A DNA stretch of 64,000 bases from an uncultured virus (IMG/VR IMGVR_UViG_3300020446_000005) (IMGVR_UViG_3300020446_000005); one strand, 5' to 3'. Positions 445 through 62,900 are shown, counted from the first letter of the stretch. A program made the numbers and translations. Notes: generated by a model not told the origin, from the sequence alone.

Positions 445-789
445 ATGTATTAATAGTAGAATTAAAGAATATTTTGAGGTTTGAAAATGCCAGGTAGATC
501 GATGTTAAATAAGGACTATTATAAATTAAGAAGAGATTTTAATCCTAGAGTAGTACCTTCTGTAGATTTTATACCTGGCACTGGTCATTATGATGGAACT
601 ATTTTTGATACACCACAGATGATAGAAAACGAGCCATATCCTGATCCTTTTGGAGTACCTTTTCCTTTAGCTCAAGCAGATGAAAAAGATATGAAAGGTA
701 ACGATTTTCTAAAACAATTTATGATGAATAAGATGTTTGCATAATAGATCCTGAATCAAAACTCTTTTTTATGTATTAATAGTAGAATT
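439..789 (+). repeat. 25 bp direct repeat (439-463 and 765-789) containing a TAGAAT -10 box
   Basis: TTTTTTATGTATTAATAGTAGAATT occurs twice, each upstream of an ORF with ATG CCA GG. Confidence 0.9.
481..744 (+). CDS. Hypothetical protein with C-terminal FL motif (start may be ATG 487)
   Basis: ORF after -10 box; ends GNDFLKQFMMNKMFA. Confidence 0.7.
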   Translation: MKMPGRSMLNKDYYKLRRDFNPRVVPSVDFIPGTGHYDGTIFDTPQMIENEPYPDPFGVPFPLAQADEKDMKGNDFLKQFMMNKMFA

Positions 790-801
790 GAGAAAACATT
801 A

Positions 802-1026
802 GTGGTAACAATGCCAGGCTCAACAATGTCCCAAAATGAAGCATATGACAATATGCTGCGTTCAATGAACGGCCAAACTTTTAACAATCCAGCTATCGGA
901 AGTCTCTCCCAAGTAAGTCCTGGTGAGCAGCAACTTCGTCAAAAAGAAATGGTTAATAATCAATCAAGTGTTTCTCAAAGAGCTGCACAATTTTTGACCA
1001 TGATGAAAGGACAAGGCATGGGTTAA
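802..1026 (+). CDS. Hypothetical protein with C-terminal FL motif (start may be ATG 811)
   Basis: ORF after duplicated -10 box; ends QRAAQFLTMMKGQGMG. Confidence 0.7.
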   Translation: MVTMPGSTMSQNEAYDNMLRSMNGQTFNNPAIGSLSQVSPGEQQLRQKEMVNNQSSVSQRAAQFLTMMKGQGMG

Positions 1027-1334
1027 TGAAATTTTTAGAGGAATTTAAAAATAAAAAGTTTGGAAATAATATGATTGCTCATCATTTAGATCCTAATGCT
1101 CCAGCAGGAGACATCCCTTTTACTGAACCTTCATTAGAAGATTTAGTAGAAATGGTAAAAAAAGGTAAACTTGGAAAAGAAGTATTAGGTGATGATGCAG
1201 ATATTATGCTTCAATATGGCACTCCATCTCAAAGACGTAAACAGTTAGAAGATACAGGTTCTTTAGAGATACCTGTAATACCTTTTCAATCTGGTAAACA
1301 ATTTTTAGATAGTTACAGAACTCCCCCAGGATAA
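1026..1334 (+). CDS. Hypothetical protein with FL motifs at both ends
   Basis: TAATG coupling; MKFLEEF...GKQFLDSY. Confidence 0.75.
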   Translation: MKFLEEFKNKKFGNNMIAHHLDPNAPAGDIPFTEPSLEDLVEMVKKGKLGKEVLGDDADIMLQYGTPSQRRKQLEDTGSLEIPVIPFQSGKQFLDSYRTPPG

Positions 1335-1615
1335 TGAGATTTGCTGGTTCAATAGGATATTATCCAAGTTTTCCTGTTAAATATTCGAATATGTACAATG
1401 ATTATTCGATGGTAACAGCAGGATTAGCAGATCCTTTTCAACCACAAAAGAAAGAAAAATCAAATAAATGTAATTTTGTAGTTTCTTACATAGGAAAGAA
1501 TGAACCTAAATTTGAAATGAACAATCCACATTATATGAGAGAGGTTTCAAGATCTTATTCTGATAGTATTCCCCCTGTTATTCTTAATAAAGAGCCAATA
1601 CAGAATAGATTTTAA
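1334..1615 (+). CDS. Hypothetical protein
   Basis: TAATG-coupled ORF starting MRFAG. Confidence 0.7.
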   Translation: MRFAGSIGYYPSFPVKYSNMYNDYSMVTAGLADPFQPQKKEKSNKCNFVVSYIGKNEPKFEMNNPHYMREVSRSYSDSIPPVILNKEPIQNRF

Positions 1616-1863
1616 TGGCACAAGACGATTCCAAATACACCAAACCCGGCCTGAGAAAAAGAATATTTAATCAGGTCAAAGCTGGATCTAAAGGTGGTAA
1701 ACCAGGTCAATGGTCAGCTAGAAAAGCACAATTAGTAGCACAAAAATATAAAGCTCAAGGAGGAGGTTATAAAGGAGGTAAGGGTAAGAAGCAAAAAGAT
1801 CTGAAGAGATGGGGTAAAGAGAAGTGGATGACTAGAAAAGAATACGAGAAAAAGAAAGACTAA
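1615..1863 (+). CDS. Basic protein, N-terminal half of DUF5872-like family
   Basis: YTKPGLR...GGKPGQWSARKAQL...GGGYKG...LKRWGKEKW. Confidence 0.75.
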   Translation: MAQDDSKYTKPGLRKRIFNQVKAGSKGGKPGQWSARKAQLVAQKYKAQGGGYKGGKGKKQKDLKRWGKEKWMTRKEYEKKKD

Positions 1864-2075
1864 TGAATACAGTTACTTGGGCATTAAGACTTATTTTTGT
1901 AGTAGTTCTTTTTGAATTATTTATAGTCGCTGGAACTGTAGTCAGTTGTTTTGAAACTGATTCATGCGATGAAAATGATTCTAATAATATTACTTTAATT
2001 TTAAATAGTATTGCTGCAAAATCTTTTGCTTTATATGCAGCTGAGAAGGGGAGTTCGAGTAAAATAGAGAAATGA
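1863..2075 (+). CDS. Small membrane protein (holin-like size)
   Basis: Hydrophobic N-terminal helix, Cys pair, second weak helix. Confidence 0.65.
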   Translation: MNTVTWALRLIFVVVLFELFIVAGTVVSCFETDSCDENDSNNITLILNSIAAKSFALYAAEKGSSSKIEK

Positions 2076-2494: not shown

Positions 2495-2496
2495 TC

Positions 2497-3903: not shown

Positions 3904-4290
3904 TTAATAAGTCCGATAAACAGGCATATTACCTCTTGGTACTCCTTTCATTAAATCAGGATAATTTTTTAATGTTTTATCATAATCAAAACCTTCGGAA
4001 GCTGGTATTCCACCTTCAATAAAGTCCATATAGCCTCTTATTCTGTCTCTTAAAATGGGTGAGTCAAAGCCAAATTCTTTGTACATTTTTTCTTGTTCTG
4101 CATCTTTAAATTGACCAAAGTTACCTACTGCATGATACTTAGCCTTCTGTCCCCCAGGAAATGTTTCTGGTAATTCAGGATAATCCACTCGCCTATTAAA
4201 ACCTGTTTCCATATCAGGAACAGTAACGTCTGCAGCTATAAGATTTTTAGAGTAGTTATCTAAAAATGATTTTGTGTTAATTTTTGCCAT
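3904..4290 (-). CDS. Hypothetical protein with N-terminal FL motif
   Basis: MAKINTKSFLDNYSKNL. Confidence 0.75.
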   Translation of the reverse strand: MAKINTKSFLDNYSKNLIAADVTVPDMETGFNRRVDYPELPETFPGGQKAKYHAVGNFGQFKDAEQEKMYKEFGFDSPILRDRIRGYMDFIEGGIPASEGFDYDKTLKNYPDLMKGVPRGNMPVYRTY

Positions 4291-4293
4291 AAT

Positions 4294-4649: not shown

Positions 4650-4877
4650 TTATTTTTTATTAACTTTCTTTAATTCTTTCTTTGCTTCTTTAACATATTT
4701 TTTTAGAACATCCATATCTAACATAAGATAACCATCTTCTTCAAAGACCGCTTCTGGTATGACATCCCTAACTTGTTGTGCAGAAAAACCAGCTCTAAGT
4801 CTTTGATCAATATCAAATTCTTCTTTATATCTAAATTGAATAGCTTGGAGCTGTTTTAATTTTTCTAAAGCACTCAT
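4650..4877 (-). CDS. Stand-alone body of a peptidase S74 / intramolecular chaperone domain
   Basis: ALEKLKQLQAIQFRYK...AGFSAQQVRDVIPEAV...DGYLMLD; lacks the N-terminal SDxRxK motif. Confidence 0.75.
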   Translation of the reverse strand: MSALEKLKQLQAIQFRYKEEFDIDQRLRAGFSAQQVRDVIPEAVFEEDGYLMLDMDVLKKYVKEAKKELKKVNKK

Positions 4878-6856
4878 GCTTGTAATTCTTTTACAAAATA
4901 TGCTACTTCAGCTAAATCATCTCTAATTAAATTCATATTTGTAAGAGGCATAATATTAAATTTACATCTCAAATCACATCTTCTTCCTCTTCTTCCTCTT
5001 CTTCCTCTTCTTCTGCTTCTGCTCCTTCTTGCACCACTTGATCTTCTTCTACTTCTGCTTGTATTACTACTTCTACTCCTTGAGGAACTTCTTCTACTTT
5101 TACTTCCTGTAGCTCCTCTAGATCTACTACCTGCACTACCTGCTGAGCCTCCTCTTCTACCTGCTCTTCCTGTAGATCTTCTACTACTACTTCTTGTTCC
5201 ACTTCTTGAGGCTCTCCTACTTGCACTCCCTGTCGCTCCTCTTGATCTTGAAGTTGCTCCACTGGATCCACTTCTTCTACTCTTACTTCTGTTAAATGAC
5301 CTTGATTTTTTTACTGCTGTCTTAGCAGATGCTGCAGTTGCTGATGTTCCTGACCTTGTTTGTGATTTTCTACCTCTTGATGCTGCTATTCTCTTTTTTC
5401 GTGCTTCATTTCTTGCTTTAGCCCTGTCTCGCATCTTTTGTCTATTCTCTGCATTTACCTGAGAGACTGTCTTTCCTTGCAATGTTCTGTTTACTGCTGC
5501 TGCTTGAGCTCTAGCAACTCCTGTGTTTGAAGTTGGCCTGGCTACTCCGCTCTCATCAATAGAAACATTTGGATTCCTTGCTGCTATTGATTGTGCTTTA
5601 GCAACATTACTAGGGTCTTTGGCAATTCCTAAATTTACACTACCAAAAGGAACACCTTGACCAGCTAATCGTGTTTGTCCAGTAGTTTGTTGTATAGCTT
5701 TCTGTGCTGATTCTTGTGTAGCTGCCTCTGCACTCGGAGTAAATACTCTAGATACACCTTCGACTGTTTTTTTTAGTAAATCTCCAGTTTTTTGAAGAAT
5801 TCCTTTTTTCTTTGGTTGTTCAGATTCTTTTTTATTTATTTCCGCTGCTTCTTTAGAAGAACGTATAATTCCATATTTATCTAGATTTTCATTTGGTCCT
5901 AATTTTTTTAACCTTTCTCTATACTCAGGAGCAGTCAAAATATATTTATTCATAGGATCTGGTCTACCTTTTTCATCATATTCAAGTTGACTTTTGTAAT
6001 AATTTAAATCCTTAATTTGTTTATTAGTATCCTCTAATCCACGCACCGCAGCGTTTAATCTTTCCTTTTGTTTTGTTTTATAATCTTCTTTTGCATCTGT
6101 AGCAATATATCTTTTTATAGTTTTTGTGTCGTATTCTGCTTTATCTTGAAAATAATCAGTAGCTGTAGGAGTTCCATCAGGAGCTGTTCCATACCTGATA
6201 TTTTTTCTTTTAAATGTATCTATTGCTTCTTTATCACTTAGACCAGAATAATCAGAATCCCTTCGTGCTTGTTTTAGTCTAATAGTATCTTTATACTCCT
6301 CGGAGCCAAATCTTCCTCTATCTGTCGCCTCTTTAAATTCAGGTTTTGAAAAAATACTCTTATAATCTGTTTTTGGTTCATCTTTATCAAATATCTGCTT
6401 AATTTGTTTATAGCTATCCTCATAGCCTGGGGATGTTTTTTGTTTATAACTAGTGTCATAACTAGCATCAGCAAGATTTTGCGAGGCTTGATTTACTATA
6501 CCAGTTACTTTATTAGCATCATTAGCAACACTAAAATCACTACCACTAAAGCCAGATAAGTCTGCTGATGCAACTTTTACATTATTTCTAGGATCAAAAG
6601 CAGCACCATCTGGAGAGAAAAATCCGCCCTTATTGGTAGGTGAAGCGTCAACTCTGTCTTTAAAAGGATTAAATCTATCTCCCATTCCTCTACCAGTTTC
6701 TTTTACTGCCCCTGTACTTTCCTGACCACTTAATCTTTTACTAGCATTATCAATATCTCTAATCATTTTATCTAATGGATCTACTCTATAAGTAGCCATT
6801 GCCATCCTTGTGGCTTTCTTTGATGGTGCTTTAATACCAGATCCTTCTATTGCCAA
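4874..6856 (-). CDS. 660 aa protein with protamine-like Arg/Ser tail and terminal S74-like CDLRCK motif; putative virion core protein
   Basis: Long ORF (TTG start, TAGAAT upstream); ~140 aa R/S/G/A/T low-complexity tract then CDLRCKFNIMPL. Confidence 0.8.
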   Translation of the reverse strand: MAIEGSGIKAPSKKATRMAMATYRVDPLDKMIRDIDNASKRLSGQESTGAVKETGRGMGDRFNPFKDRVDASPTNKGGFFSPDGAAFDPRNNVKVASADLSGFSGSDFSVANDANKVTGIVNQASQNLADASYDTSYKQKTSPGYEDSYKQIKQIFDKDEPKTDYKSIFSKPEFKEATDRGRFGSEEYKDTIRLKQARRDSDYSGLSDKEAIDTFKRKNIRYGTAPDGTPTATDYFQDKAEYDTKTIKRYIATDAKEDYKTKQKERLNAAVRGLEDTNKQIKDLNYYKSQLEYDEKGRPDPMNKYILTAPEYRERLKKLGPNENLDKYGIIRSSKEAAEINKKESEQPKKKGILQKTGDLLKKTVEGVSRVFTPSAEAATQESAQKAIQQTTGQTRLAGQGVPFGSVNLGIAKDPSNVAKAQSIAARNPNVSIDESGVARPTSNTGVARAQAAAVNRTLQGKTVSQVNAENRQKMRDRAKARNEARKKRIAASRGRKSQTRSGTSATAASAKTAVKKSRSFNRSKSRRSGSSGATSRSRGATGSASRRASRSGTRSSSRRSTGRAGRRGGSAGSAGSRSRGATGSKSRRSSSRSRSSNTSRSRRRSSGARRSRSRRRGRRGRRGRRCDLRCKFNIMPLTNMNLIRDDLAEVAYFVKELQA

Positions 6857-7978: not shown

Positions 7979-8152
7979 TTAAAAAGTGTTAAGAAAATCA
8001 TCGTTTAAGTTATCATCTCCTAATAAACCAGCCCCTAAAGCTGCCCCATATTTTATATTTCCACGAGATATAGAGTTTTCTACTTGATGACGAAGCATGT
8101 CCTTATATATGTCAGAGTCATCTAAAACTCCTGATACATAATTAAATTTCAT
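7979..8152 (-). CDS. Small hypothetical protein (57 aa) with C-terminal FL motif
   Basis: MKFNYVSG...GAALGAGLLG...NDDFLNTF. Confidence 0.55.
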   Translation of the reverse strand: MKFNYVSGVLDDSDIYKDMLRHQVENSISRGNIKYGAALGAGLLGDDNLNDDFLNTF

Positions 8153-8175: not shown

Positions 8176-8451
8176 TTATGATACATCAAAAGAACTGGTT
8201 TCGAAACCAGCTGCCAAATCTGGAGGAGCATTTGGTGGTAGAAAATGACTTCTTATTCCATTAAATAATTCAATAGTTTGATCTAAACTTAATTCTTGCT
8301 CACCATGAATAGTATCTATAAAAATAGGGTCTTCTCTTAAACCGTCTAAAGTTTTTAAAGCACCATCAATTTTTTTCAAAATAGCTGCATGATGTTTTTT
8401 TATGTCAGTTTTTTCTTTAAGTTTCATAATCATTACAGTATGGAAGTTCAT
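8176..8451 (-). CDS. Hypothetical protein
   Basis: 91 aa helical ORF. Confidence 0.65.
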   Translation of the reverse strand: MNFHTVMIMKLKEKTDIKKHHAAILKKIDGALKTLDGLREDPIFIDTIHGEQELSLDQTIELFNGIRSHFLPPNAPPDLAAGFETSSFDVS

Positions 8452-8501
8452 ACATTAGTGTAGCTATTTTATTAAAGCACCTATAAGTTTAATTTCAAAC
8501 T

Positions 8502-9664: not shown

Positions 9665-10798
9665 GTGAACGAAGAAGAATTTTTTAGAAAATATATGAAT
9701 CCAGACGATGGTATTTATAGATCAGCTCGTCTTATGGGTAGAATGGCTGGTGAGAGAGATATTGTTGGTAATTATTTTAAACGTATTCGTAATGCTCAAG
9801 GTACAGGAAAAGATTTTTATTTACCAGAAAATACAAAAGAATATAAACCTATGAGAGATGAAGCCTTTACAAATATATACGGTAAAGGTTTTGTTGACAT
9901 GTATGACAGATATAAACCCATAGGAGAGGGTGCTTATGGAGCAGTTTTTGAAAAACCTGGAGACTCTCAAAGAGTCTTAAAAGTACAGAGACAAGACACA
10001 TTAGATCGACAGAAATTTGGAGATACTGAAATAGCTAGACAAACAGAAGCAGCAGAAATGGGAGTTGCTCCAAAAATTCATTCAGTTACTAATTTTCCTT
10101 ATAAGCATGAAGTGCCTATGGAAATACTTAGATCATTTGATAATAGATATGGAACAGTAGATCCAAGACATCAAGTTACTGAGATGGATAGAGTTAATAC
10201 AGTTGACTCTCAAGGTGGAAAAATAAAGATGTTGCAAGATTATGTGCAGAAATTACAAGGAGGCGAGAGAGGTTATACAACTTATGACAAATTTGAAGAG
10301 CCTTACCAAAGGGAGAATGCTAAATATAATTTAGCCATGTCAAAAGCTCAACTCCACTTAGCTGATAGGGGTATAGTTCATACTGATTTAGGACAATATC
10401 CTTACGGAGATGCAAGAGAAGACCATGTTGCATACAATCCAAATACAAATAAGATGCAATTTATAGATTATGGACACACAGAAAAATATAATCACGCAGA
10501 AAATTTACATCAACATACTAAAAATTTAAATCTAAGAAATGAAGAGTTAAAAGATTATACATATGGAGCTAATGTAGAGCATTTTCTAGACCATAAAGTA
10601 GCAAATATTGTTAGAGGAATGGAAGCTACTGGTAGTAAGAGTGATGCAAAAGAATTTAGAAAAATATACAATGATGCAGTTGATAAAGATTTACTTGCAG
10701 CTAATCAATTAGTTAATGAAGGTAGAGAAATAATCAGAAATAAATCATTTAAAGATGTGGTGCCTTTTTTAAATAGAGAAGAATTAGATCTTATGTAA
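9665..10798 (+). CDS. Ser/Thr protein kinase-like protein
   Basis: IGEGAYGAV Gly loop, VLKV Lys, helix-C Glu, IVHTDL catalytic loop, FIDYG. Confidence 0.85.
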   Translation: MNEEEFFRKYMNPDDGIYRSARLMGRMAGERDIVGNYFKRIRNAQGTGKDFYLPENTKEYKPMRDEAFTNIYGKGFVDMYDRYKPIGEGAYGAVFEKPGDSQRVLKVQRQDTLDRQKFGDTEIARQTEAAEMGVAPKIHSVTNFPYKHEVPMEILRSFDNRYGTVDPRHQVTEMDRVNTVDSQGGKIKMLQDYVQKLQGGERGYTTYDKFEEPYQRENAKYNLAMSKAQLHLADRGIVHTDLGQYPYGDAREDHVAYNPNTNKMQFIDYGHTEKYNHAENLHQHTKNLNLRNEELKDYTYGANVEHFLDHKVANIVRGMEATGSKSDAKEFRKIYNDAVDKDLLAANQLVNEGREIIRNKSFKDVVPFLNREELDLM

Positions 10799-22045: not shown

Positions 22046-23338
22046 ATGCCTGTTTCTCCACGAGACTTCGAGCTATATTCCCGTATGACTGGTGCTCCAA
22101 TGCCTATGGATGCCTCACAACGCATGCAAATGGCTCCTGCAGTGTACGATTTTACGAAAAATTTTGCAAGAAAACCAAATATTTTAGAAAAAACAGGTAA
22201 TTTAGTAAAAAATATTGGTAAAACCATTGGAACTGGTATGGCAGTTGCAGCTGCAGCCCCAGCCTATGCCGAACAACAACAAACTACGGCCGATAGTTAC
22301 AATCAAGACAGAGTAGAGAACCAAACTGCATCAAATACAATACTAAGAAGTGGAACTCAACAAGTAGATCTAGAAAATAATAAAACTATTGCTGAAGACA
22401 TACAAGAAGATCAAAATTTAAGTCCAGAGATTGTAGTAAGTAATCCTACTACAAAAGAAGAAGAGCTTTCTGCTAAATTAAAAGACGATGAAACGACTGC
22501 CGGACTTGCAAGAATAGGTGGTCCTGCAAATATTTCTGATAAAGTTCAAGAATTTTTAAAGCAAGATAAATTAAACCCAGTTTTACTAGCTGCAATGCAA
22601 AATAGGGGTCAAGAAGAAGAATTAATTGCTACTGATTTCCCTATTGCATCACAATTATCTGATAACCCACAAATACCTGGCGGAGAGGATACTAGAGCTT
22701 TATCTCGTGAGTTTGTAAAAGAAACAGAGCCAATAGACAGTGGTATTCCTACAAATGTAGATCCTTCTACACTTACACCTGAAGTTAGAAATGTTTTAAG
22801 TACTCTTGCTAAAGGAGCTGCAACAATTCCTCTTGAAAAGCAAATAAGAATTGCTCAAGACATTGTGGACAAAAGAAGTCCTAATGAAGTGTTTGGATTT
22901 GCTAGTAAAGATGCTGATACTTTAAAAGCATTACAAGGAGGAGCAGGGATACCTCAACAGGAAAGAGAGGCAGCAAGAAACAGACTTATAAATAAAGCAG
23001 CCCAAAAACGTGCGGACTTAGGGATAGATGCTCCAAGTACAATGAAGAAAGTAAAAGATCTTCAATCTCGAATTATGCCTAGTAAACCAAGTTCTTTTGT
23101 TGAATCTATGTCTTTAGATACATCACCAAATAAAGTTCCTACAGCTACTTTTAATCTTTATAAGAAGGATGGAGGGACAAAACCTTTTTCTATGGAATTA
23201 AGTTCTCCAATGGCTGTATCTTTAAATGAAATGGTTGAAGATGAGTCTCTACAAGAGGAATCTTTTGGGAAATTATTTAATCTTGCTAAAAAGTCCATAA
23301 AAGACAAAACAGGAATGGCTTTTGGTATAGATCAATAA
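22046..23338 (+). CDS. Putative internal virion protein with C-terminal KTSC-like domain
   Basis: Disordered middle; SSFVESMSLD...SFGKLFN. Confidence 0.65.
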   Translation: MPVSPRDFELYSRMTGAPMPMDASQRMQMAPAVYDFTKNFARKPNILEKTGNLVKNIGKTIGTGMAVAAAAPAYAEQQQTTADSYNQDRVENQTASNTILRSGTQQVDLENNKTIAEDIQEDQNLSPEIVVSNPTTKEEELSAKLKDDETTAGLARIGGPANISDKVQEFLKQDKLNPVLLAAMQNRGQEEELIATDFPIASQLSDNPQIPGGEDTRALSREFVKETEPIDSGIPTNVDPSTLTPEVRNVLSTLAKGAATIPLEKQIRIAQDIVDKRSPNEVFGFASKDADTLKALQGGAGIPQQEREAARNRLINKAAQKRADLGIDAPSTMKKVKDLQSRIMPSKPSSFVESMSLDTSPNKVPTATFNLYKKDGGTKPFSMELSSPMAVSLNEMVEDESLQEESFGKLFNLAKKSIKDKTGMAFGIDQ

Positions 23339-23564: not shown

Positions 23565-24035
23565 ATGGTTCAATTTGGAAACCTAAAAAGAAATTTAAAA
23601 ACTCCAGCTGATAAGGTTACCTTTCAGGGAAAGAATCCTGCAAATAAAACTACTGGTCCTAATACGGCAGGTAACTTACAAGATCCTTGGAGAGGGACAC
23701 TTGATAATAATCCTTTGAATGATGACTTTTATCAGAGTTCTTATACATTTGGTAATCAGGCTCCTGAAGTTCAACAAAGACTTGAAGGTTTGCAATTTGA
23801 ATATGGGAATGCTTTTGAAGAAGGAAATAATGAATTTGCTCAAAATTTTTTAAATAAATATACCTCTGCACTAGGGGGATCTGATAGTGCAGAGAATAAA
23901 GGTTTGATTGAGCAGGATAGAATAGTAAGACCAGAGAACTTAGCTCAATTAGCTGCACAACCAGCAACTGGTGGTAATGCTATTCAAGATTCAAACGTAG
24001 CTGGTAAATTCCCAAGTCAGGAGGTAAACGTGTAA
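23565..24035 (+). CDS. Hypothetical virion protein with FL motif
   Basis: AQNFLNKY. Confidence 0.7.
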   Translation: MVQFGNLKRNLKTPADKVTFQGKNPANKTTGPNTAGNLQDPWRGTLDNNPLNDDFYQSSYTFGNQAPEVQQRLEGLQFEYGNAFEEGNNEFAQNFLNKYTSALGGSDSAENKGLIEQDRIVRPENLAQLAAQPATGGNAIQDSNVAGKFPSQEVNV

Positions 24036-24607: not shown

Positions 24608-25138
24608 ATGAGCTTTGCAGGTTTAATGAGAGGTGACAGAGATTTTTTAAAAGATCCTGTAAATTTCAAAGATAGTTATGTTCGTGGATTGAAAGATGCT
24701 TTTGATAAAAGAAAAGATACATCAAGTGAGATAGAATCTGATGAAATTTATGCAACAGAAAACAAAGCTTTTAACGATAAATTTAAAAGAGATAATTCAA
24801 AAGGATTTTTAGATAGTGCTATTTCAGGAGGATTAGATTATTTTAAGAAAAGTCAAGAAAAATCTGATACTGATAAAATAATTGATTTTGCAAAATCACA
24901 ACAAGGAAAAGCTCAGTTTGGAGACAATACAAGCGGTTTCTCTTCTGAAGTTGCAGATGGACTTAATATTTTCCAACCACCAAGTCCAAACCAAATGATG
25001 TTTATTCCAGGAAAGGAAGGAACAGGTAAAAGCTTTACTCAAAGATTAGCTGGTGGTGCTGCTGGTTTATTAAGTGGTCTTTCAACAGGGATTCCTCACG
25101 CAGGTGGTATTGGAGCTGTAGCTGGTTTCTTTGGATAA
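24608..25138 (+). CDS. Ejection-like protein with C-terminal glycine zipper
   Basis: RLAGGAAGLLSG...GGIGAVAGFFG. Confidence 0.65.
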   Translation: MSFAGLMRGDRDFLKDPVNFKDSYVRGLKDAFDKRKDTSSEIESDEIYATENKAFNDKFKRDNSKGFLDSAISGGLDYFKKSQEKSDTDKIIDFAKSQQGKAQFGDNTSGFSSEVADGLNIFQPPSPNQMMFIPGKEGTGKSFTQRLAGGAAGLLSGLSTGIPHAGGIGAVAGFFG

Positions 25139-32505: not shown

Positions 32506-33001
32506 AGTAATTGATCATTTTGGTGCTGATGCTCCGGCAGTTTTAAATAACTATGCTTGTCAGATTGAAGACGCATTAATTCAGACAAATAGCCAACTAC
32601 AAGAAGCAGTTAACTTATTACAGGAAATGTCTACAGAGCATAAAGCTTACGAGACAATTCTTACAGATCCAGACGTTCTAGCTGATTACACATGTGAGTT
32701 CTTTGGAGAGAATGGTCCTTATCCAGTAGAGGATGATGCACCAGCATATCCACAGGCTCCTACATTCGCAGGTCAGCAAGTTCCTAATCCAGCTGCTGCA
32801 CAAGGTCAGGCACAAGCACAAGCTCCTGCAAGACCTCAAATGCCTGTTCCTCCACAACCACAAGCTCCTGCTAATTCAGAAGATTTCTGGAAGGACTTTG
32901 GTGGAGCTGCAGACCGTGACCCACAGAACGCATGGAGATATTTAAATGCTGCACAGCAAAACCCACAAGTGTTCCGCGAGAAACTTCTCGTAATGGAATA
33001 A
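31985..33001 (+). CDS. Putative capsid scaffolding protein (Gln/Pro-rich)
   Basis: GAGGT SD at 31975; disordered plus coiled coil; between portal and capsid. Confidence 0.65.
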   Translation: MQDATAQQTQSAPQVSQTQQSSYVAPQTAAQAPSVATSPQWVAPTTQQVAPAPQVQAQMGVQGYQSTPTQYQPQQQQATPQAENPYKDAFNRVVGLLSSPVQFPSLGQQSTVNPAADQANYGYQQTTPYNNPAQQTYTPSNNNNQAYSNNYSQTSQEITQDQLLANGVSPESLEVIDHFGADAPAVLNNYACQIEDALIQTNSQLQEAVNLLQEMSTEHKAYETILTDPDVLADYTCEFFGENGPYPVEDDAPAYPQAPTFAGQQVPNPAAAQGQAQAQAPARPQMPVPPQPQAPANSEDFWKDFGGAADRDPQNAWRYLNAAQQNPQVFREKLLVME

Positions 33002-33050: not shown

Positions 33051-33479
33051 ATGAAAAAGAAAAAAGCTAGTACTACTCAAAGAGCAGATCAATTTTTACA
33101 AGCTATAGGAACTGCAGGTGGTCCTATAGGATCTCCTCAATTAGTTGGTTTCGGAGGTACAGATGTACAAAGTCAATTAGCTTCAGGAAATAGAGATGAA
33201 TATGAAAGTATAAGAATGCGTCAAGGAGATACTAGAGTTGTTGAAGGTGCAAAGATGCCATCTGATTTAGATGCTTCTTATTTAAAATTAAATTTACCAG
33301 GATCTCCATTACCAGCTAATGGTTTATTAGCTCCGCAAAATATGGTAGCTGCTGAAAGAAATCAAGATTTTATTAGAAGCCAAGAGCAGATGTTTTTATC
33401 ACAATATTTACCTGCAGCCGGTTTAAGTCAACTACCTGTAGGTCAGCCCCCTTTAGAATCTAATAAAGGTAAAAAATAA
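33051..33479 (+). CDS. Hypothetical virion protein with FL motif
   Basis: QRADQFLQAI. Confidence 0.7.
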   Translation: MKKKKASTTQRADQFLQAIGTAGGPIGSPQLVGFGGTDVQSQLASGNRDEYESIRMRQGDTRVVEGAKMPSDLDASYLKLNLPGSPLPANGLLAPQNMVAAERNQDFIRSQEQMFLSQYLPAAGLSQLPVGQPPLESNKGKK

Positions 33480-33755
33480 ATGGATTTAAAAAAAGCAAAA
33501 AAAGCCAAAATGATGGCAAAAGATTTTCTTAATGACGTAGCCATTGAAGATCGTGAAGATGAAATGGATGAATTAGAAAATCGTTTAGATGTTTTACAGA
33601 GTGAAATAGATAGATTATCAACACCAGATTTACAACCCGAAGATGGATATGTTACTCCTATGCATAGAATAGGTGTTGTTCCTTCAGCTACATATTCTTT
33701 AGGTAATCAACTAGATGGATATAGCTCTCGCGTAGAAGATAACGTAATTATTTAG
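33480..33755 (+). CDS. Hypothetical protein with FL motif and coiled coil
   Basis: AKDFLNDV. Confidence 0.7.
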   Translation: MDLKKAKKAKMMAKDFLNDVAIEDREDEMDELENRLDVLQSEIDRLSTPDLQPEDGYVTPMHRIGVVPSATYSLGNQLDGYSSRVEDNVII

Positions 33756-46021: not shown

Positions 46022-46099
46022 AATTTTTCGAAAATTAGCAATAATTTCTAAAAATTACCCTCTGTAAAATAATAGAAGTAATAAGAGATTTAAGTAATC

Positions 46100-46795: not shown

Positions 46796-46798
46796 ATT

Positions 46799-47410
46799 AT
46801 GCCTATTACAATTAATGGATCAGGAACAGTAACAGGAGTCTCAGTAGGAGGACTACCTGACGGTATTGTTGATACTGATATGCTTGCTAATGGTGCTGTA
46901 ACCGCAACTAAAAGAGGTGCTGGAGCTATTCTTCAAGTTGTTCAATTTAGAAAGACTGATACTTTTAGTTCTTCCAATAATGGTTTTGTAGATATTGGTG
47001 TTGCTGTTGATATTACTCCTATAGCAGCAGGGAGTAAAATTTTAATTTATGCAGGATATTCTGGATATACTGTTAAAGGGTCAGGCGGTGCTGGAAAAAT
47101 AGTTAGAACAATAGGTGGCTCTGCTCAAGATATAGGAAAAGCTGATGCTGCTAGTGCAAGAAATGTTTCATCTTTTTCTGGTCATTTATACACAGCAGAT
47201 GGTTCAAACTCTAATTTAATGTCATTAGCTGCTCATACTCAACTTTTAGATACGCCAACTTATTCCGTAGGTAACACAATAAATTACAAAATACAATGTC
47301 ATCCCGAAAATCACGAATTAAGAATAAATTATCAAGAAAATGATGTTGATAATACAGGTGATGGAAATAGAACAACTAGCTACATCACTTGCATGGAGGT
47401 AGCAGCATGA
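46799..47410 (+). CDS. Short fibre/tip protein, paralog 1
   Basis: GAILQVV...SKILI...ITCMEVAA. Confidence 0.75.
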   Translation: MPITINGSGTVTGVSVGGLPDGIVDTDMLANGAVTATKRGAGAILQVVQFRKTDTFSSSNNGFVDIGVAVDITPIAAGSKILIYAGYSGYTVKGSGGAGKIVRTIGGSAQDIGKADAASARNVSSFSGHLYTADGSNSNLMSLAAHTQLLDTPTYSVGNTINYKIQCHPENHELRINYQENDVDNTGDGNRTTSYITCMEVAA

Positions 47411-47997
47411 GTAGTATTAAATTAACAGCTGATTCTGGAGGAGGTACTTTTGAAATTAAGGCTCCTTCTTCTAGTGGAAATACAAGAGTACTAACTTTAC
47501 CTGATACACATAATCTTACTTTAAATGGAGGTAAAATTCTTCAAGTAAAATCAACAACTAAAACTGATACATTTACAACAACAAGTGGTACTTTTACTGA
47601 TGTTACTGGTTTAAGCGTAGATATAACACCTTCTTCTACTTCTAGTAAAATATTAGTCACTGTAGATATTACTGGAAGTGGTAGAGGTGGTTCGGCACGT
47701 GTACCAGTTCGTTTATTGCGTGACAGTACACCGATAGGTAACGCTACAGATGTAGGTAATAGAAAAGCATCTTTTGGTGTTTTATATACTGGTAGTGATG
47801 ACGCTGGATTTGCAACAGCTAATATACAATTTTTAGATTCACCAAATACTACTAGCTCTGTGACTTATAAAGTACAAATAGTTAATGGAAATAATAATGG
47901 TAGTACTGTTGTAGTTAATAGAAATTATAATGATACTAACTCTGCCACAAATCAAAGAGTTAGCTCTAGCATTACAGCACAGGAGGTAGCAGCATAG
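47407..47997 (+). CDS. Short fibre/tip protein, paralog 2
   Basis: ATGA overlap; GKILQV...SSKILV...ITAQEVAA. Confidence 0.75.
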   Translation: MSSIKLTADSGGGTFEIKAPSSSGNTRVLTLPDTHNLTLNGGKILQVKSTTKTDTFTTTSGTFTDVTGLSVDITPSSTSSKILVTVDITGSGRGGSARVPVRLLRDSTPIGNATDVGNRKASFGVLYTGSDDAGFATANIQFLDSPNTTSSVTYKVQIVNGNNNGSTVVVNRNYNDTNSATNQRVSSSITAQEVAA

Positions 47998-48048
47998 AAG
48001 TTGATATATTTAGTTCCTCTAAAATAAGTAAATAAAAGAATTTTTAAT

Positions 48049-48372
48049 ATGGCATTAGATCATGAAGCCATTTATGAGGCTTATAAAGGTGTTGTAGTTT
48101 CTATAGATGACAGTGCAGGAGCCTTCGATGCTAGTGGAAACTCTGTTAGTCTCGACTCCGACAAAATCGCAACCGCAAGAGCTTCATTAAATGCAGCTGC
48201 AGCAGCAATAAAATATCAATCAGATAGAACTACTAATGGATCTACAAAGTATGACACGGTGGGTAATCAGCTCGACATGCTCTACAAAGACTTGGTAGCA
48301 GGTAAGTTAGATACTACTGGAACATGGGCAACACATATTAAAGCTGTAAAGGACGCTAATCCAAAACCATGA
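48049..48372 (+). CDS. Tail fibre chaperone-like small protein
   Basis: LDHEAI...QLDMLY...IKAVKDANPKP. Confidence 0.7.
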   Translation: MALDHEAIYEAYKGVVVSIDDSAGAFDASGNSVSLDSDKIATARASLNAAAAAIKYQSDRTTNGSTKYDTVGNQLDMLYKDLVAGKLDTTGTWATHIKAVKDANPKP

Positions 48373-49505
48373 GTGAAATCAAAGTAAATTCGATAAAAGG
48401 GGTAGGAGCTAGTGCTGCTGCTATTACTGTAAATAATTCTGATGGAACGTGTACTGCTAATATTACTAATAACCTAAGTAATAGAAATGTTTTAATAAAT
48501 GGAGAATTTAGAGTAAATCAAAGAGGTAACCAAACAGGTATAAATTCTGGAGGTTCAAATTATACCTTGGATAGATGGATTTTTGGCCTTAACAATGGAG
48601 GTACTTGGAGTATATCCCAATCAACTGACACTCCAGATGGTTTCGGAAATTCACTTAAGTTAGATTGCACTACTGCTGATTCATCATTAGCAGCAGATGA
48701 TTATCTTCTTCTAAGACAGAAATTAGAAGGTCAGGATTGTCAAGCATTTGCAAAAGGCACTTCTGCTGCAAAACAATTTGCTGTTTCTTTTTATGTAAAA
48801 ACAAATAAATCTGGACTTTATACTGTTGAAATACATGATAACGATAATAATAGAATAGCCAGTAAAACATTTACAGTATCAGACGGAAACTGGAATCGTT
48901 ATTCATTAATTTTTCCAGCCGACACAACAGGTGCTTTTGATAATGATAATGCTCAATCATTAACTTTTAATATTTGGTTAGGAGCAGGATCAGGATATAC
49001 AAGTGGAACTTTCAATACTTCTAGTTGGGCAGCAAAGGCTAATGCAAATAGAGTTTCAAGTTCAAATGTAAACCTTGCAGATTCAACATCAAATGAATTT
49101 TTCCTTACAGGAGTTCAATTAGAAGTAGGCAGCGTGGCAACAGATTTTGAGCATAGGTCATTCGGTCAGGAGCTTGCTTTATGTCAGAGGTATTATGAAA
49201 CATCATATGACTTTGTTGGTGGTACATATCCGGGTGCTGCAAATTCTTCCCATTACTTTATGACAACACCTGATGGATATTCTTTTCAACCCGGTATAGA
49301 TTTTAAAGTTGTTAAAAGAGCATCTCCTACTATAGTAATGTATTCAACTACTGGTGCAATAAATAAATTTAGAAAATGGAATGATGGAGTTGACCAAACG
49401 TCTGTAGGTGGACACATTTCAGCTAATGGATTTTTACCCCATGTAAGTGGTGCTACATCTAATGTGTTTTATGCTGGTCAATTTACAGCAGATGCCGAAT
49501 TATAG
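48369..49505 (+). CDS. Tail fibre / receptor-binding protein, paralog of 44490-45650
   Basis: NVLINGEFRVNQRG...GVQLEVG...ALCQRYY. Confidence 0.8.
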   Translation: MSEIKVNSIKGVGASAAAITVNNSDGTCTANITNNLSNRNVLINGEFRVNQRGNQTGINSGGSNYTLDRWIFGLNNGGTWSISQSTDTPDGFGNSLKLDCTTADSSLAADDYLLLRQKLEGQDCQAFAKGTSAAKQFAVSFYVKTNKSGLYTVEIHDNDNNRIASKTFTVSDGNWNRYSLIFPADTTGAFDNDNAQSLTFNIWLGAGSGYTSGTFNTSSWAAKANANRVSSSNVNLADSTSNEFFLTGVQLEVGSVATDFEHRSFGQELALCQRYYETSYDFVGGTYPGAANSSHYFMTTPDGYSFQPGIDFKVVKRASPTIVMYSTTGAINKFRKWNDGVDQTSVGGHISANGFLPHVSGATSNVFYAGQFTADAEL

Positions 49506-49514
49506 GAGATTATT

Positions 49515-49676
49515 ATGGCTAAGTATAAACTATTAAAAGATCATTATACAGGAAAATTAGATAACAGAGTTTTCCATGAGACAAAAGGGGCGATTCCATT
49601 CGATCCAGCAAACACCGACTACCAAGAATACCTTAAGTGGATAGCAGAGGGAAATACAGCCGAAGCTGCTGATTAG
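49515..49676 (+). CDS. Small tail fibre chaperone-like protein (53 aa)
   Basis: IPFDPANTDYQEYLKWIAEGN; AGGAG SD. Confidence 0.75.
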   Translation: MAKYKLLKDHYTGKLDNRVFHETKGAIPFDPANTDYQEYLKWIAEGNTAEAAD

Positions 49677-53863: not shown

Positions 53864-54274
53864 GTGATTAATTGCGAGCAAGACCTCTTAGTAAATCTAA
53901 TTGAACTATCTCCAAAAAATGCTCGACGAAAATTTAGACAGTCAATTTTTGAAGCTTGGAAATGGAAATGTGCATATTGTGATAAGGATCTAAATACTTT
54001 TACCGCGACAATTGATCATATTATTCCAAAATTTAAAGGTGGACATAATGTTAAATCTAATATGATTTGCTCCTGTTCGAAATGTAATAGATCTAAAGGA
54101 TCTGTATCGCTAGAAGATTGGTATAATACCGCTAATTCTTGTTATTCAGAGGAAAGACTTGGTAAAATAAAGCATTGGATAGAAGATAATAGTGGAACTA
54201 TTAAGCTTGTATCTTCAGACAAAGCTACTCCGTACATAACAAATGATTTCTACATCGGATGGATCCCAAGCTAA
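53864..54274 (+). CDS. HNH endonuclease
   Basis: CAYC...TIDHIIP..KGG...N...CSKCNRSKG. Confidence 0.9.
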   Translation: MINCEQDLLVNLIELSPKNARRKFRQSIFEAWKWKCAYCDKDLNTFTATIDHIIPKFKGGHNVKSNMICSCSKCNRSKGSVSLEDWYNTANSCYSEERLGKIKHWIEDNSGTIKLVSSDKATPYITNDFYIGWIPS

Positions 54275-54431
54275 AGCTAAGGCATTTTTGAAAGATAAAA
54301 GTCAAAAGATCATGGAATATATGCCTGAGTTACAAAGAGCACGTATGCCAGATGCACTTGCAAGAACTGAAGGTCAGAAAGGACAAGACCTGATGACTAA
54401 AGCAGTAGATGGAACTTTAAAAATTCTATAA
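54243..54431 (+). CDS. Hypothetical protein with FL motif
   Basis: AKAKAFLKDK. Confidence 0.55.
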   Translation: MISTSDGSQAKAKAFLKDKSQKIMEYMPELQRARMPDALARTEGQKGQDLMTKAVDGTLKIL

Positions 54432-54728: not shown

Positions 54729-55523
54729 TTAAATAAGACTCCAACTCCTCCACCATTTTGTAATTACATATTTACATCCTTTAATTGGTGGTAAGGCTTC
54801 ATGAATTGTTTTAAAGTTTGGAAAGCCATTACTGTATAAATTATTCCAAGCAATTAATAACCCTTTTTTTGGTTTAATTTTTAAATTTAATCGCTTAAAA
54901 TAAGTTTCTCCTCCCTCTTCAACATCATTTAAATAGATCATTGTTGTCCAAGTTCTTTGACCCATCCATTCACAGTAAGTTTTATATTCCTTTGTAAGTG
55001 GATTAAAAAAATCACAGTGTTCTTTATAGTATTCACCCTCTTCATATTTTTGAGCTTGCATTGTTTCGCCTAAAAACGGTTCTAATTCCATTAAATTTGA
55101 TATTTTCTTATCAATACTTAAATAAAAAGGGTCTTTAAAGTAATTCAAATCAGAGGTTTTACTAGTTCTGTAATTATTTACTAAACAAGTATCATCTCTG
55201 TCTGCAACTGTAGATGGTCTTAAATTTCTTGATATCATTGAGATTAATTTATCACATTCTTCATATCCTAGAAATCTTTTACATTGATATATCTGTGTAA
55301 AAGGATAGTAAATTCGATCTGTCTTTTCAATTATTGGATTATTATAAAACTCTTTATAATTTATTTTTGTTGGTTTTTTCTTAAATTGAGCTAATAATTG
55401 TAATTTGTTTATTTGTTCTTGATTTAAATTATATGTTTCTTTAAATTTTCTTTCTACTTGAGTTTTACTTGCACCACTAACAGATGCTTCAGTAAAATTT
55501 TTTATTAATTCCTCTATATTCAT
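54729..55523 (-). CDS. Prolyl 4-hydroxylase-like 2OG-Fe(II) oxygenase
   Basis: RTS, EHCDFF, QRTWTTMIYLNDVEEGGET, HEALP, KYVITKW. Confidence 0.9.
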   Translation of the reverse strand: MNIEELIKNFTEASVSGASKTQVERKFKETYNLNQEQINKLQLLAQFKKKPTKINYKEFYNNPIIEKTDRIYYPFTQIYQCKRFLGYEECDKLISMISRNLRPSTVADRDDTCLVNNYRTSKTSDLNYFKDPFYLSIDKKISNLMELEPFLGETMQAQKYEEGEYYKEHCDFFNPLTKEYKTYCEWMGQRTWTTMIYLNDVEEGGETYFKRLNLKIKPKKGLLIAWNNLYSNGFPNFKTIHEALPPIKGCKYVITKWWRSWSLI

Positions 55524-57611: not shown

Positions 57612-57845
57612 ATGAGATATACACAATCTAAGCTTAGCCAAGATTATAAAGTTGACGAGCGATATAGAGAATCTCGTGGATCTTCAGATAATGCTACTGG
57701 TTTAGCTTTTCTTAAAAGATTTTCTAAAAATTTAAATTTTAAACCGGGAAGCAGTACAGATACAGAGTTTCCACCCAGTATAGATAATAGAGATACTACA
57801 GATATTAAAAATGTCATGAAGAAATCAAGTAACTACTTTTCCTAA
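57612..57845 (+). CDS. Hypothetical protein with FL motif
   Basis: GLAFLKRFSKNL; TAAAAT at 57600-57605. Confidence 0.65.
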   Translation: MRYTQSKLSQDYKVDERYRESRGSSDNATGLAFLKRFSKNLNFKPGSSTDTEFPPSIDNRDTTDIKNVMKKSSNYFS

Positions 57846-59651: not shown

Positions 59652-59652
59652 C

Positions 59653-60914: not shown

Positions 60915-62035
60915 TTTTGGCAGTTGAGTTGTTGTCTATTCTTGTAATATTCGAATATGTTGTCATGACTTAGTTTAATCGAGGTAATTTTTTTTGGATA
61001 ATCATTATCTTTTAATTCTTTTATTGTCAGATGTTTGGGGTTACAACAAAAAGATTGACAGCTTGGTTTACTAAATATTCTATATTTACCTGTATATCCT
61101 CTACTTAGCCAAAAAGCTATTCGTGGTGCGGATTGTGTCTTACCTGAATGAAAAGGTGAGGGAAAATATGCTGTTGATTCCGTATTATTTTTTCTTGTTG
61201 CACCTTTCCAAGGCCAGCAGGAATCTTCATCTTTAACCTCTACCTGCTCCCAAAATCTTTTTACCTGCCAATACCATCTAAAGTCAAATTCTCTAACATC
61301 AACCAGACATCTTCCTTCTTTTATCTGCTTCATACAATCTAGACACTCTCCCATAATTCCAAAATTACCCTTATGCTCTTTTGTATTTTTTATGTGCCAA
61401 GGGCATTCTAAATTTTGAGTCACAAGAAAATTTAATTTATATTTTTTTGATTCTTCTGGAAATGAATGACTTATCTGTTCACAGATTTTAGAGAGATTAT
61501 CCCAGATTTCTTTTTCATTGTAATCATTTTTTCTGTCTTCAGCATCCTCATATGTCTCATAAGAACATATTCTTCTAACGGAATGATATGGAAGTCTATA
61601 AGTCTTTGATAATTTTCTACTACTTATTCCTTTCTTACTTTCCTGTCTTAATTTACTTATTAAGAAAGTATCTATACTATTTTCTTTTATAGAAGCACAT
61701 TCATAAGCTACATCTTTTCTTGTGCCCCAATAATAATGACTAGGGTTTAAACAATATGGAGACTGACAAAATCCTTTGCGTACTATTATTGTTTTTTCTT
61801 CTTTTGGTATTCTTCCAGTTAAGTAAAGTAAAAGTTCTCTAGCATCTTTTCCAGAATATAATAATTTATTTTTTTTACTGGTATTAAAACCTTCAAATGC
61901 AGAATGTTTTATTTTTTTCATACACCAGCATTTTTCTTTTCCAAGTACTTTTAAACCTGTTTTAAAAGCATTTATAAATTTTATTTGGTCATAAGGAGTT
62001 AAAAGGTTGTACAGGAAAGGGTTTTCGATTTGCAT
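60899..62035 (-). CDS. Tandem His-Me/HNH-like zinc-loop protein with central HTH
   Basis: KCWCM...CQSPYCLNPSH; ISSRKLSKTY HTH; SCWPWKG...CQSFCCNPKHL. Confidence 0.75.
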   Translation of the reverse strand: MQIENPFLYNLLTPYDQIKFINAFKTGLKVLGKEKCWCMKKIKHSAFEGFNTSKKNKLLYSGKDARELLLYLTGRIPKEEKTIIVRKGFCQSPYCLNPSHYYWGTRKDVAYECASIKENSIDTFLISKLRQESKKGISSRKLSKTYRLPYHSVRRICSYETYEDAEDRKNDYNEKEIWDNLSKICEQISHSFPEESKKYKLNFLVTQNLECPWHIKNTKEHKGNFGIMGECLDCMKQIKEGRCLVDVREFDFRWYWQVKRFWEQVEVKDEDSCWPWKGATRKNNTESTAYFPSPFHSGKTQSAPRIAFWLSRGYTGKYRIFSKPSCQSFCCNPKHLTIKELKDNDYPKKITSIKLSHDNIFEYYKNRQQLNCQKCQDS

Positions 62036-62093
62036 GTGAGTAGGGGGTGGTGTGATTTTTAGTATAGATCCCTTTTATAGCAATGGCAATCAT

Positions 62094-62255
62094 TGAACAC
62101 CCAAAACCTAATTTTTTTTGCCTATTTTATTTACTTCTAAGGAAGATGAGGTTAGGTATGTGACTGTTAAATTTTATATATACACTCTTTTACCTATCCT
62201 CAACATATACGTAGCCGAGTAAAACCGCTATTTTTTTTACGAATTTGGGTGTTCA
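62094..62255. repeat. Nested inverted repeats on a common axis
   Basis: TGAACACCCAAA/TTTGGGTGTTCA (12/12) and TGAGGTTAGGTA/TACCTATCCTCA (11/12), both centred at 62174.5. Confidence 0.8.
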
Positions 62256-62483
62256 TAGTAAACTTCAATTATAAAAAGGGATTTTAAGAATTATTTTTAT
62301 AAAAAAACAATAACCATACCTTTAAGTCTATATTTAAAGGTCATAATTAAAAAAAATATGGTAGTAGGGGTAGGTATTTGATTGTATATTTTAAATAAAA
62401 ATAATATACAAGCTCTTTCTAACCTCAATAGTCAAGTAGTTTTGTAAGTGGTAAAATAAAAAAAAGTAAAAATTTTTAATAAA

Positions 62484-62717
62484 ATGACAAATTATGCTGG
62501 CTTTGATCAGTCTGGATTAGAAATGAATGCTGATCTAGGTGATCCGCGTAGACAATCTAAATTACCAGGTGGATATGCAACTCAAGGTCAGGCAGTATCT
62601 GCACCTTATGCAGAAGCTAATATGAAAGCTGCAGAAAAAACAAACCCTATGAATGCAAAGTCTCAAGAAACACCTGTAGGAGATAGGGTTAATGAGTTTT
62701 TAAATAGGGTTACTTAA
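62484..62717 (+). CDS. Hypothetical protein with C-terminal FL motif
   Basis: Ends DRVNEFLNRVT. Confidence 0.7.
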   Translation: MTNYAGFDQSGLEMNADLGDPRRQSKLPGGYATQGQAVSAPYAEANMKAAEKTNPMNAKSQETPVGDRVNEFLNRVT

Positions 62718-62900
62718 ATGGGAGATAATGATTTTCCAGCAGTTATGGCAAATGGGGGAAAAAGTTTTTTAGATGGCTATATGAAAAGAAAGGATCTGTA
62801 TAGTCAATCGGGTACGAGTATTCCTGACTTGTCAATTGAAAGAGATTTTGAACAAGAATTAGGAAAACCAGCAATAGAAACGGTAAAAATTCGTAGATAA
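62718..62900 (+). CDS. Hypothetical protein with FL motif
   Basis: GGKSFLDGY. Confidence 0.7.
   Translation: MGDNDFPAVMANGGKSFLDGYMKRKDLYSQSGTSIPDLSIERDFEQELGKPAIETVKIRR

Follow-up and report, generated by a model that had tools for sequence, protein, structure and literature searches.

A conserved F-L helix shared by unrelated orphan proteins of an S-EIV1-like marine phage, and its possible docking partners

Why should at least a dozen otherwise unrelated phage proteins carry what looks like one and the same short helix, and to what would such a helix bind? The question arises from a stretch of 64,000 nucleotides belonging to an uncultured virus in IMG/VR (IMGVR_UViG_3300020446_000005), referred to here, at its full length, as the window, in which a preliminary description had picked out a string of the form [GA]xxFLxx[YF] in about 14 proteins and had proposed that it sorts these proteins into the capsid. 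The window is phage DNA, and the phage is a member of the S-EIV1-like lineage, which is marine, abundant and uncultured. The answer developed here has two parts of different strength. As far as a comparison of sequences goes, the strings are a real, lineage-specific and conserved short linear motif, since their enrichment is replicated in independent protein families, is absent from control phages and is accompanied by retention of the motif in homologues. With regard to the purpose of the motif, a docking helix that loads its carriers into the phage head is the reading that we tentatively favour, by analogy with known systems, as possible rather than probable.

The strings themselves are where they were said to be. 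All 14 are found in the named open reading frames (ORFs) with their nucleotide coordinates verified and, counting the F as position 0, G or A stands at -3 in 9 of the 14 and Y or F three residues after the L, at +4, in 7, just as had been tallied; the string EEEFFRKY, mentioned alongside them, is found at 9671 within ORF 9665-10798. The accompanying caveat, that FL is frequent in such a genome, is equally correct, as the 126 genes of the window (19,415 amino acids) contain 66 FL dipeptides where 1000 within-protein shuffles, the null used for the window, give 61.7. Enrichment over shuffled controls consequently fails for the bare dipeptide and holds for a narrower core, FL[DNK].[FY] (dots standing for any residue), with 7 occurrences against 1.0 expected and none of the 1000 shuffles reaching that count. 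FL..[FY] is found 10 times against 5.0 (27 of 1000 shuffles reach 10) and [AG]..FL..[FY] 5 times against 0.63 (1 of 1000), and among decoys with rearranged residues FL..[FY], [AG]..FL..[FY] and FL[DNK].[FY] each rank first, out of 60, 24 and 24 respectively. These patterns were, however, defined post hoc and are in that sense fitted to the data, and an unbiased enumeration, led by Lys/Glu helices (E...K..E), Ala-rich runs and MT[TK] starts, leaves the FL motif outside the top 15 in the window and outside the top 12 in the pan-proteome, so that the window on its own is unconvincing. Counts of 8-mer neighbours do not single out the motif. Nor do two further properties that had been ascribed to the strings rise above chance. 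Distant pairs were thought to match beyond the core, and 1302 pairs of 8-mers from unrelated proteins score at least 26 against 1032-1131 in 4 shuffles, with 18 pairs against 6-21 in shuffles at a score of at least 34; the motif was also described as often terminal, and in 22 of 41 instances an end of the protein is no more than 25 residues away, where protein lengths alone lead one to expect 17.2.

The evidence that carries the case comes from families with no member in the window. Together with 11 relatives, namely ten large contigs (G002-G011) and S-EIV1, the window encodes 1351 proteins that cluster into 507 families, and one representative of each of the 392 families lacking a window member provides an independent set of 47,479 amino acids in which the patterns, fixed beforehand, can be counted afresh. 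Here the FL dipeptide is again at expectation (142 against 147), FL..[FY] occurs 23 times against 11.0 (1 of 300 shuffles), and both [AG]..FL..[FY], at 8 against 1.7, and FL[DNK].[FY], at 12 against 2.0, reach counts seen in none of 300 shuffles; the matches span proteins of 51-521 amino acids, and distant homology hidden between some of these families and the window carriers is possible. Decoys in the same set stay near their expectation of 1.9 (LF[DNK].[FY] 4, reversed forms 3 and 3), and the general class composed of two hydrophobic residues, two of any kind and [FY] is not enriched (355 against 322). Of the 17 independent seeds, 6 again have G at -3, a position that formed no part of the selecting pattern. 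Counted by family, the motif is present in 37 and the decoys in 16-22, an excess of some 15-20 families.

In the control phages P-SSP7, T4 (1-50 kb) and P-SSM4 (1-50 kb), which amount to 45,044 amino acids from the same gene caller, the enrichment is absent for each of the three patterns, with FL..[FY] at 12 against 12.2 expected, [AG]..FL..[FY] at 2 against 1.6 and FL[DNK].[FY] at 3 against 2.4. Within the lineage the related pattern FL[polar].[FY] is counted 10 times against 2.95 in the window, 12 against 2.8 in G007, 10 against 2.9 in G004 and 7 against 2.35 in G006. The C-terminus of an M23 peptidase of S-EIV1 reads ...SFLDDY.

The expectation that the strings be conserved in homologues is borne out for the FL core of 12 of the 14 carriers, partly so for the carrier 22046 and not for 33480 (carriers are named here by the first coordinate of their ORF, and copies of the motif lie on the plus strand unless the minus strand is given). 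Three families are the most instructive. The small protein 487-744 has GNDFLKQF as a C-terminal tag (697..720), and FL stands at the tag site in 18 of its 23 homologues, 7 of them as FL..[FY], with LL in 1 and the remaining 4 truncated or divergent. Homologues P0152-P0164 represent a long form of 127-148 amino acids that retains AFQ[ND]FLN and gains a Gly/Met-rich extension, ending in a second helix, GDLFNRLLNRRMQNLG. Protein 1026-1334 has two copies, MKFLEEF at the N-terminus (1026..1046), which is found as MKFL..F in 2 of 2 homologues, and GKQFLDSY as a C-terminal tag (1293..1316). In its two orthologues, L106:18009-18380 and L111:2520-2867, the C-terminal linkers are longer and of different sequence, yet they end in DDLAFLQSFMKNK or DDLAFLKDFINRK. 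A first search of the genome records (G001-G011) gave no match for this protein, and orthologues in G007 and G008 were read later; a near-identical 12-mer stands at both of its ends, the G007 orthologue having KFLQDFKNKNLG at the N-terminus and AFLQSFMKNKNLS at the C-terminus, and as its sequence reads the protein would be a two-headed ligand. The third family, that of 3904-4290, has TKSFLDNY as an N-terminal tag (4252..4275, minus strand), retained as FL..[YFW] in 21 of 22 homologues, the remaining one being a fragment without the region, and insertions separate the tag from the conserved domain. These homologues come from the protein database, the records G001-G011 and the IMG/VR scan having given no match for 3904.

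The other carriers are less richly represented. NDDFLNTF at the C-terminus of 7979-8152 (7982..8005, minus strand) recurs in 2 of 2 homologues as DDFLNTF and DDFLIDY, one of these homologues being just 38% identical overall, and the C-terminal tag AAQFLTMM of 811-1026 (982..1005), which has no aromatic residue at +4, is kept in 2 of 2. The C-terminal VNEFLNRV of 62484-62717 (62688..62711) has FL in 7 of 7 homologues, in one of them shifted as GKDFLAAYL, while GKSFLDGY in the N-terminal region of 62718-62900 (62757..62780) corresponds to FL..[FY] in 4 of 8 homologues and to K-W-[KRQ] in the other 4. Internal copies are AQNFLNKY of 23565-24035 (23838..23861), whose homologues retain F-[LMAV]-x-K-Y, SKGFLDSA of 24608-25138 (24797..24820), again without the +4 aromatic and kept as [GS]FL[DE]xA in 3 of 3, and GLAFLKRF of 57612-57845 (57699..57722), with FL..[FY] in 4 of 5 homologues and FVMRF in the fifth. 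AKAFLKDK, N-terminal in 54243-54431 (54276..54299), has AKQFLEGK as its counterpart in the single homologue found. A weak member is the internal VQEFLKQD of 22046-23338 (22544..22567), where FL is present in 2 of 7 homologues and EFFDK in one, and is lost in the rest. AKDFLNDV of 33480-33755 (33516..33539) is probably not a true member at all; of its 42 unique homologues, the sole one with FL is the copy identical to that of the window, the others having AL, AM, AI or similar. Scans against Pfam (127 proteins) and PHROGs (56 proteins) assign no family to any carrier, the carriers are not paralogous to one another by BLAST at 1e-4, and a single short peptide is common to these otherwise unrelated proteins. 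The small carriers 487 and 811, together with orthologues of 62484 (L090, L105), start M-P-G, as MPGRSM, MPGSTM, MPGYPM and MPGYSM; either distant paralogy or a common N-terminal feature may account for this.

What kind of element is this? Across 41 instances, one member per family, the mean net charge is +0.2 (range -3 to +3), P or G occupies -3 in 18 and +9/+10 in 19, and the hydrophobic moment is 0.38 as opposed to 0.29 for random 11-mers, a value at about the 75th percentile of random segments. From these properties the motif is judged to be a short amphipathic helix, about 12 residues long, with G/P as its boundaries at -3 and +9/+10. F0 and L1 lie on the predicted hydrophobic face, together with Y/F at +4, L at +8 and, often, I/V/M at +5; the other positions are polar, and G-K-x-F-L-[KDS]-x-[YF] can be written as a rough consensus. 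Copies are N-terminal (3904, 33051, 62718), C-terminal (487, 811, 1026, 7979, 62484) or internal (23565, 57612). In the families of 1026, 3904 and 487 the tag persists despite turnover of the linker, and all three have a terminal amphipathic helix on a poorly conserved linker of variable length; the helix behaves as a portable module, retained while linkers and host proteins change. Of the amphipathic docking helix postulated in the preliminary description, what stands is a helix that is shared, conserved and portable and is borne by unrelated small proteins, and its loading of them into the prohead would be a possible function. Selection acts at the protein level, since the F-L codon pairs of the motif are diverse, with 7 kinds in the low-GC genomes and 9 in relatives of 46-49% GC, and occur in the proportions that codon usage predicts; a DNA-level motif was rejected on account of this diversity. 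The carriers are predicted to be largely disordered. AlphaFold2 monomer models of 33051 (mean predicted local distance difference test, pLDDT, 54.7; predicted template modelling score, pTM, 0.22) and of 1026 (pLDDT 52.5, pTM 0.19) each place a low-confidence helix over the N-terminal tag, at residues 8-19 and 3-8 respectively, and are too uncertain to be used in fold searches. The ESM Atlas provided no usable match for 33051.

The genome in which the motif is found is AT-rich, with a GC content of 0.31-0.41 per 4-kb segment. Pfam and PHROGs scans identify a large terminase (28500-30023), a portal-like 'virion structural protein' of 751 amino acids (30250-32505), a major head (capsid) protein (33877-35022) and numerous tail-fibre-like genes. 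Synechococcus phage S-EIV1 has a capsid protein 70% identical to this one, the sole match among 50,697 phage records, and a nucleotide-level search of the phage records with the window returned no match. Of 607 candidate stretches in IMG/VR, 603 encode a relative of this capsid protein, which also has matches at E <= 1e-5 in 832 protein clusters. Judged by synteny with the relatives, about 17 kb of the genome lies beyond the window.

What, then, might the helix bind? Circumstantial hints of a partner in the head come from the head module itself. Upstream of the capsid gene is ORF 31985-33001, of 338 amino acids, which is kept in its own frame in all relatives (57 unique homologues, median 333 amino acids) and which, on the strength of that conservation, is taken to be a real gene. 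In another frame it overlaps the portal-like gene over that gene's last 521 nucleotides, a region of low complexity in both frames, and this could reflect either a true long gene overlap or the product of a frameshift. In its coiled-coil middle, its linker rich in Pro and Gln and its conserved C-terminal helix-loop-helix, which opens FW[KN]xF, it resembles a scaffolding protein, the putative docking domain of which starts, in the window, with FWKDF (32885..32899, plus strand). All 57 unique tails have FW..F, with W where the carriers have L, and we infer from this that FW..F is a variant of the motif. Between this ORF and the capsid gene lies 33051-33479, whose N-terminal tag ADQFLQAI (33084..33107) is the invariant copy of the motif, with F15 in 29 of 29 sequences of the family and L16 in at least 90%; a second copy in the same protein, EQMFLSQY (33384..33407), occurs in 5 of 7 family members from the large contigs and is not invariant in the 29-sequence alignment. 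The last hint concerns the carrier 62718, of 60 amino acids, whose N-terminal peptide MGDNDFPAVMAN (62718..62753, plus strand) matches the N-terminus of the major capsid protein, MFIDNDFPKLLG (33877-33912). The former starts MGDNDFP and the latter MFIDNDFP, D[NT]DFP is common to the two in every relative, and 13 of the 14 D.DFP matches in the window and its 11 relatives are the N-termini of these two families, suggesting that the small protein may mimic the N-arm of the capsid protein. A complex prediction from a 16-sequence capsid alignment and 8 sequences of the 62718 family scored 0.00 in two runs made without controls, and gives no verdict. PDB sequence searches gave no match for the capsid protein, or a relative of it, nor for the scaffold-like ORF.

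In the reading that we tentatively favour, the F-L helix would be a common docking peptide, situated at the ends or in disordered stretches of at least a dozen unrelated orphan proteins, and one partner would bind all of the copies. The favoured candidates for that partner are the scaffold-like protein and/or the inner face of the capsid protein; carriers would be recruited into the procapsid and end up in virions. The position of several carriers can be added to the hints for such a partner, as 3904 and 7979 lie in a tail-spike block and 62484 and 62718 just upstream of fibre paralogues. A more specific version, in which a position-independent and uncleaved address helix mimics the docking element of the phage's own scaffold and loads a fast-changing set of orphans for co-injection, is unlikely as it stands; if it were true, a sorting code would have arisen independently of the capsid-targeting sequence (CTS) of T4, and the injected 'cargo kit' could be read directly from metagenomes.

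A number of observations weigh against docking into the head. The excess of the motif in the window falls in the accessory regions (7 against 1.14 expected), with only 2 against 1.4 in the head-tail block (22046-50671); the early block has 1 against 0.49. No prohead protease appeared in the scans (127 proteins for Pfam, 56 for PHROGs), although about 17 kb lies beyond the window, no cleavage motif or common residue pattern is seen after the tag, and the motif, unlike the T4 CTS, is not fixed in position. The aromatic residue at +4 is absent in 811, 24608, the N-terminal copy of 33051, 54243 and 62484, so that more than one class of motif may have been lumped together. The excess of FL[polar].[FY] is missing in cultured S-EIV1 (5 against 3.2) and in the partial contigs G009-G011 (2, 2 and 1 against about 2). 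Finally, FL[DNK].[FY] occurs 16 times against 2.7 in the 507 family representatives, a -log10 P of 7.5 under a simple composition null, when the best pattern in each of 8 shuffled sets attains 6.4-7.8, which makes the motif only borderline family-wise.

The same distribution over the accessory regions is what one would look for if the portable helix had its partner elsewhere, either a host hub such as a clamp-like protein or a protease adaptor, or an adaptor of the phage's own tail or fibres, with the carriers as host-takeover or fibre-attachment factors rather than capsid cargo. We consider this doubtful, if worth serious attention. The accessory regions also hold lysozyme, HNH, methylase-like and oxygenase genes, there are many fibre paralogues in the window, and a universally conserved partner would be consistent with the retention of the motif in relatives whose GC content spans 35-49%. 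The T4 proteins gp43 and gp55 illustrate how a hub can be served by a DFL-plus-aromatic peptide, although the F-L-x-x-aromatic spacing is unlike that of the T4 tails. Set against a clamp-like hub is the scarcity of the PIP-box glutamine, whose position corresponds to -2 and which is present there in just 2 of the 14 copies in the window and 2 of the 17 independent ones; moreover, no clamp gene is seen in the window (about 17 kb of the genome again lying beyond), and at least a dozen proteins directed against one host protein would be unusual. It is also unlikely that there is no common partner at all, and that the helices are kept for reasons internal to each protein or stem from one module spread among small genes by duplication or recombination, in which event the shared letters would denote ancestry and not shared function. 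Neighbouring carriers do look distantly paralogous, as with the MPG starts of 487, 811 and orthologues of 62484, the 1026 orthologues in G007 and G008 have tails like that of 487, at least three sub-types (QRA[AD]QFL, D[KR]VxEFL and GKxFLDxY) can be distinguished, and unbiased searches are led by other, generic patterns. Ancestry of this kind has to contend with a tag that is kept while the neighbouring sequence turns over, with N-terminal, C-terminal and internal sites in proteins of 51 to 521 amino acids, and with an excess that extends to some 15-20 families beyond the decoys.

Three other accounts fare worse. MinD is targeted to the membrane by an amphipathic helix at its C-terminus, and a helix of that type could hold small proteins at the cell membrane; the motif is short, amphipathic and often terminal, with a hydrophobic moment above that of random 11-mers, but among random segments the moment ranks only at about the 75th percentile, the flanks of many copies are acidic, and the near-neutral mean charge makes membrane targeting very unlikely. 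A MinD-like helix was rejected on the grounds that the 41 instances are not net basic. It is scarcely more credible that the motif is recognised by a phage enzyme (a 2OG-Fe(II) oxygenase-like protein, a protease or a kinase) whose target would be D/N/K at +2 or Y at +4. The +2 residue is mostly D, N or K and oxygenase domains are encoded at 54729-55523 and, by a weak match, at 27914-28513, but F is as common as Y at +4 (9 F and 8 Y in 17 seeds), so a tyrosine is not required. Chance, or a by-product of TTT-TTA runs in an AT-rich genome, is highly improbable too. The dipeptide is at expectation (66 against 61.7), the patterns were picked post hoc and TTT TTA lies behind 11 of the 17 window copies, but that share fits codon usage, relatives of 46-49% GC use other codons, the fixed patterns replicate in independent families while being absent in the controls, and the motif is kept in homologues.

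Several other features of the window deserve mention. Genes of the fibre module are duplicated (44490-49676 and 62939-63999), the paralogous sets being 44490/48369, 45647/49515, 46799/47407/62939 and 48049/63718, and this duplication suggests a virion with several types of fibre. At 4650-6856 on the minus strand a protein of 660 amino acids is followed by a separate ORF of 75 amino acids that matches the Peptidase_S74 intramolecular chaperone of endosialidase-type fibres; the carrier 3904 lies at the end of this block. A search for shared promoters using 9-mers had as its sole and weak yield AAACTTATA(TAA), a possible promoter element that occurs upstream of 22046, the first late gene, of the capsid gene and of gene 8176-8427 (in 21376-22045, 33756-33876 and 8428-8501 respectively). 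The stretch 27914-28513, the weaker of the two oxygenase matches, also matches the PHROG 'DNA endonuclease V'.

The interest of the motif comes from the nature of the lineage. S-EIV1 is its one isolate in the collection of 50,697 phage records, and its genes are, with few exceptions, orphans. A tag that is both shared and conserved is a rare handle on such genes, as it groups at least a dozen unrelated orphans into one functional class and predicts one binding site. Should the helix dock onto the head, sequence alone would suffice to draw up a list of the proteins that an uncultured phage injects, and foreign proteins could be loaded into particles by means of the tag; if the partner is a host protein, the tag would mark a hub that the phage attacks with many effectors.

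How does the motif compare with docking peptides that are already known? It bears a resemblance to several classes, in particular the T4 CTS, the helix-and-hook of phage 80alpha and the encapsulation peptides of microcompartments, and further likenesses are seen in clamp-binding tails and in encapsulin cargo. The tails of T4 gp43 and gp55 bind the clamp and read ...SLDFLFG and ...SLDFLYEAND, so that there, as perhaps here, a DFL-plus-aromatic peptide on unrelated proteins would share one hub. In the T4 tails F, L and the aromatic residue are contiguous and strictly C-terminal, whereas in the present motif the spacing is F-L-x-x-aromatic, the position is free and the glutamine is mostly absent; a PIP box (Q-x-x-[LIM]-x-x-[FY]-[FY]) was rejected on the counts of Q at -2 given above. 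Encapsulin cargo-loading peptides are short terminal peptides by which unrelated cargo proteins are brought to the inner surface of an HK97-fold shell, but they are C-terminal, extended and rich in Gly, Ser and Leu, compared with the predicted helical F-L-x-x-Y/F of the phage.

Closer in layout are the microcompartment peptides. These are described, in the sections of PMC4594438 that deal with them, as N- or C-terminal amphipathic helices on unrelated cargo, joined by a poorly conserved linker of variable length. The families of 1026, 3904 and 487 have the same layout. Encapsulation peptides differ in that they are 15-20 residues long, have no sequence conservation and bind the shell of a microcompartment, where the helix discussed here is of about 12 residues, has a consensus and belongs to a tailed phage; a general Pfam scan of the window proteins brought up no bacterial microcompartment (BMC) shell family. 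For phage 80alpha, the relevant part of PMC5644958 reports that the scaffold and the SaPI1 protein CpmB have in common an 11-residue amphipathic helix plus hook, which binds both the capsid N-arm and a hydrophobic cleft. The parallel would be a scaffold-like protein with a conserved FW..F alongside small proteins with FL..[FY], although the 80alpha motif is always C-terminal and in two proteins, as against variable positions in at least a dozen carriers, and the likeness does not extend to sequence similarity with the RIIK of the hook.

The T4 CTS, finally, is a leader that is strictly N-terminal and is removed by the prohead protease. The copies described here can be N-terminal, C-terminal or internal, are not confined to the extreme N-terminus, follow a different consensus and are known from sequences alone. 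The T4 internal proteins, in the account of them in PMC3012670, are 'highly diverse', have only the conserved CTS in common and are encoded by dispersed genes. In the phage lineage considered here a short peptide is likewise the only feature common to diverse small proteins whose genes lie away from the head genes, and the likeness reaches down to the residues, as the T4 leaders (MKTYQEFIAE in IpII and IpIII, MKTFKEFTST in IpI) pair an aromatic residue with F-[IT], much as MKFLEEF does at the N-terminus of 1026.

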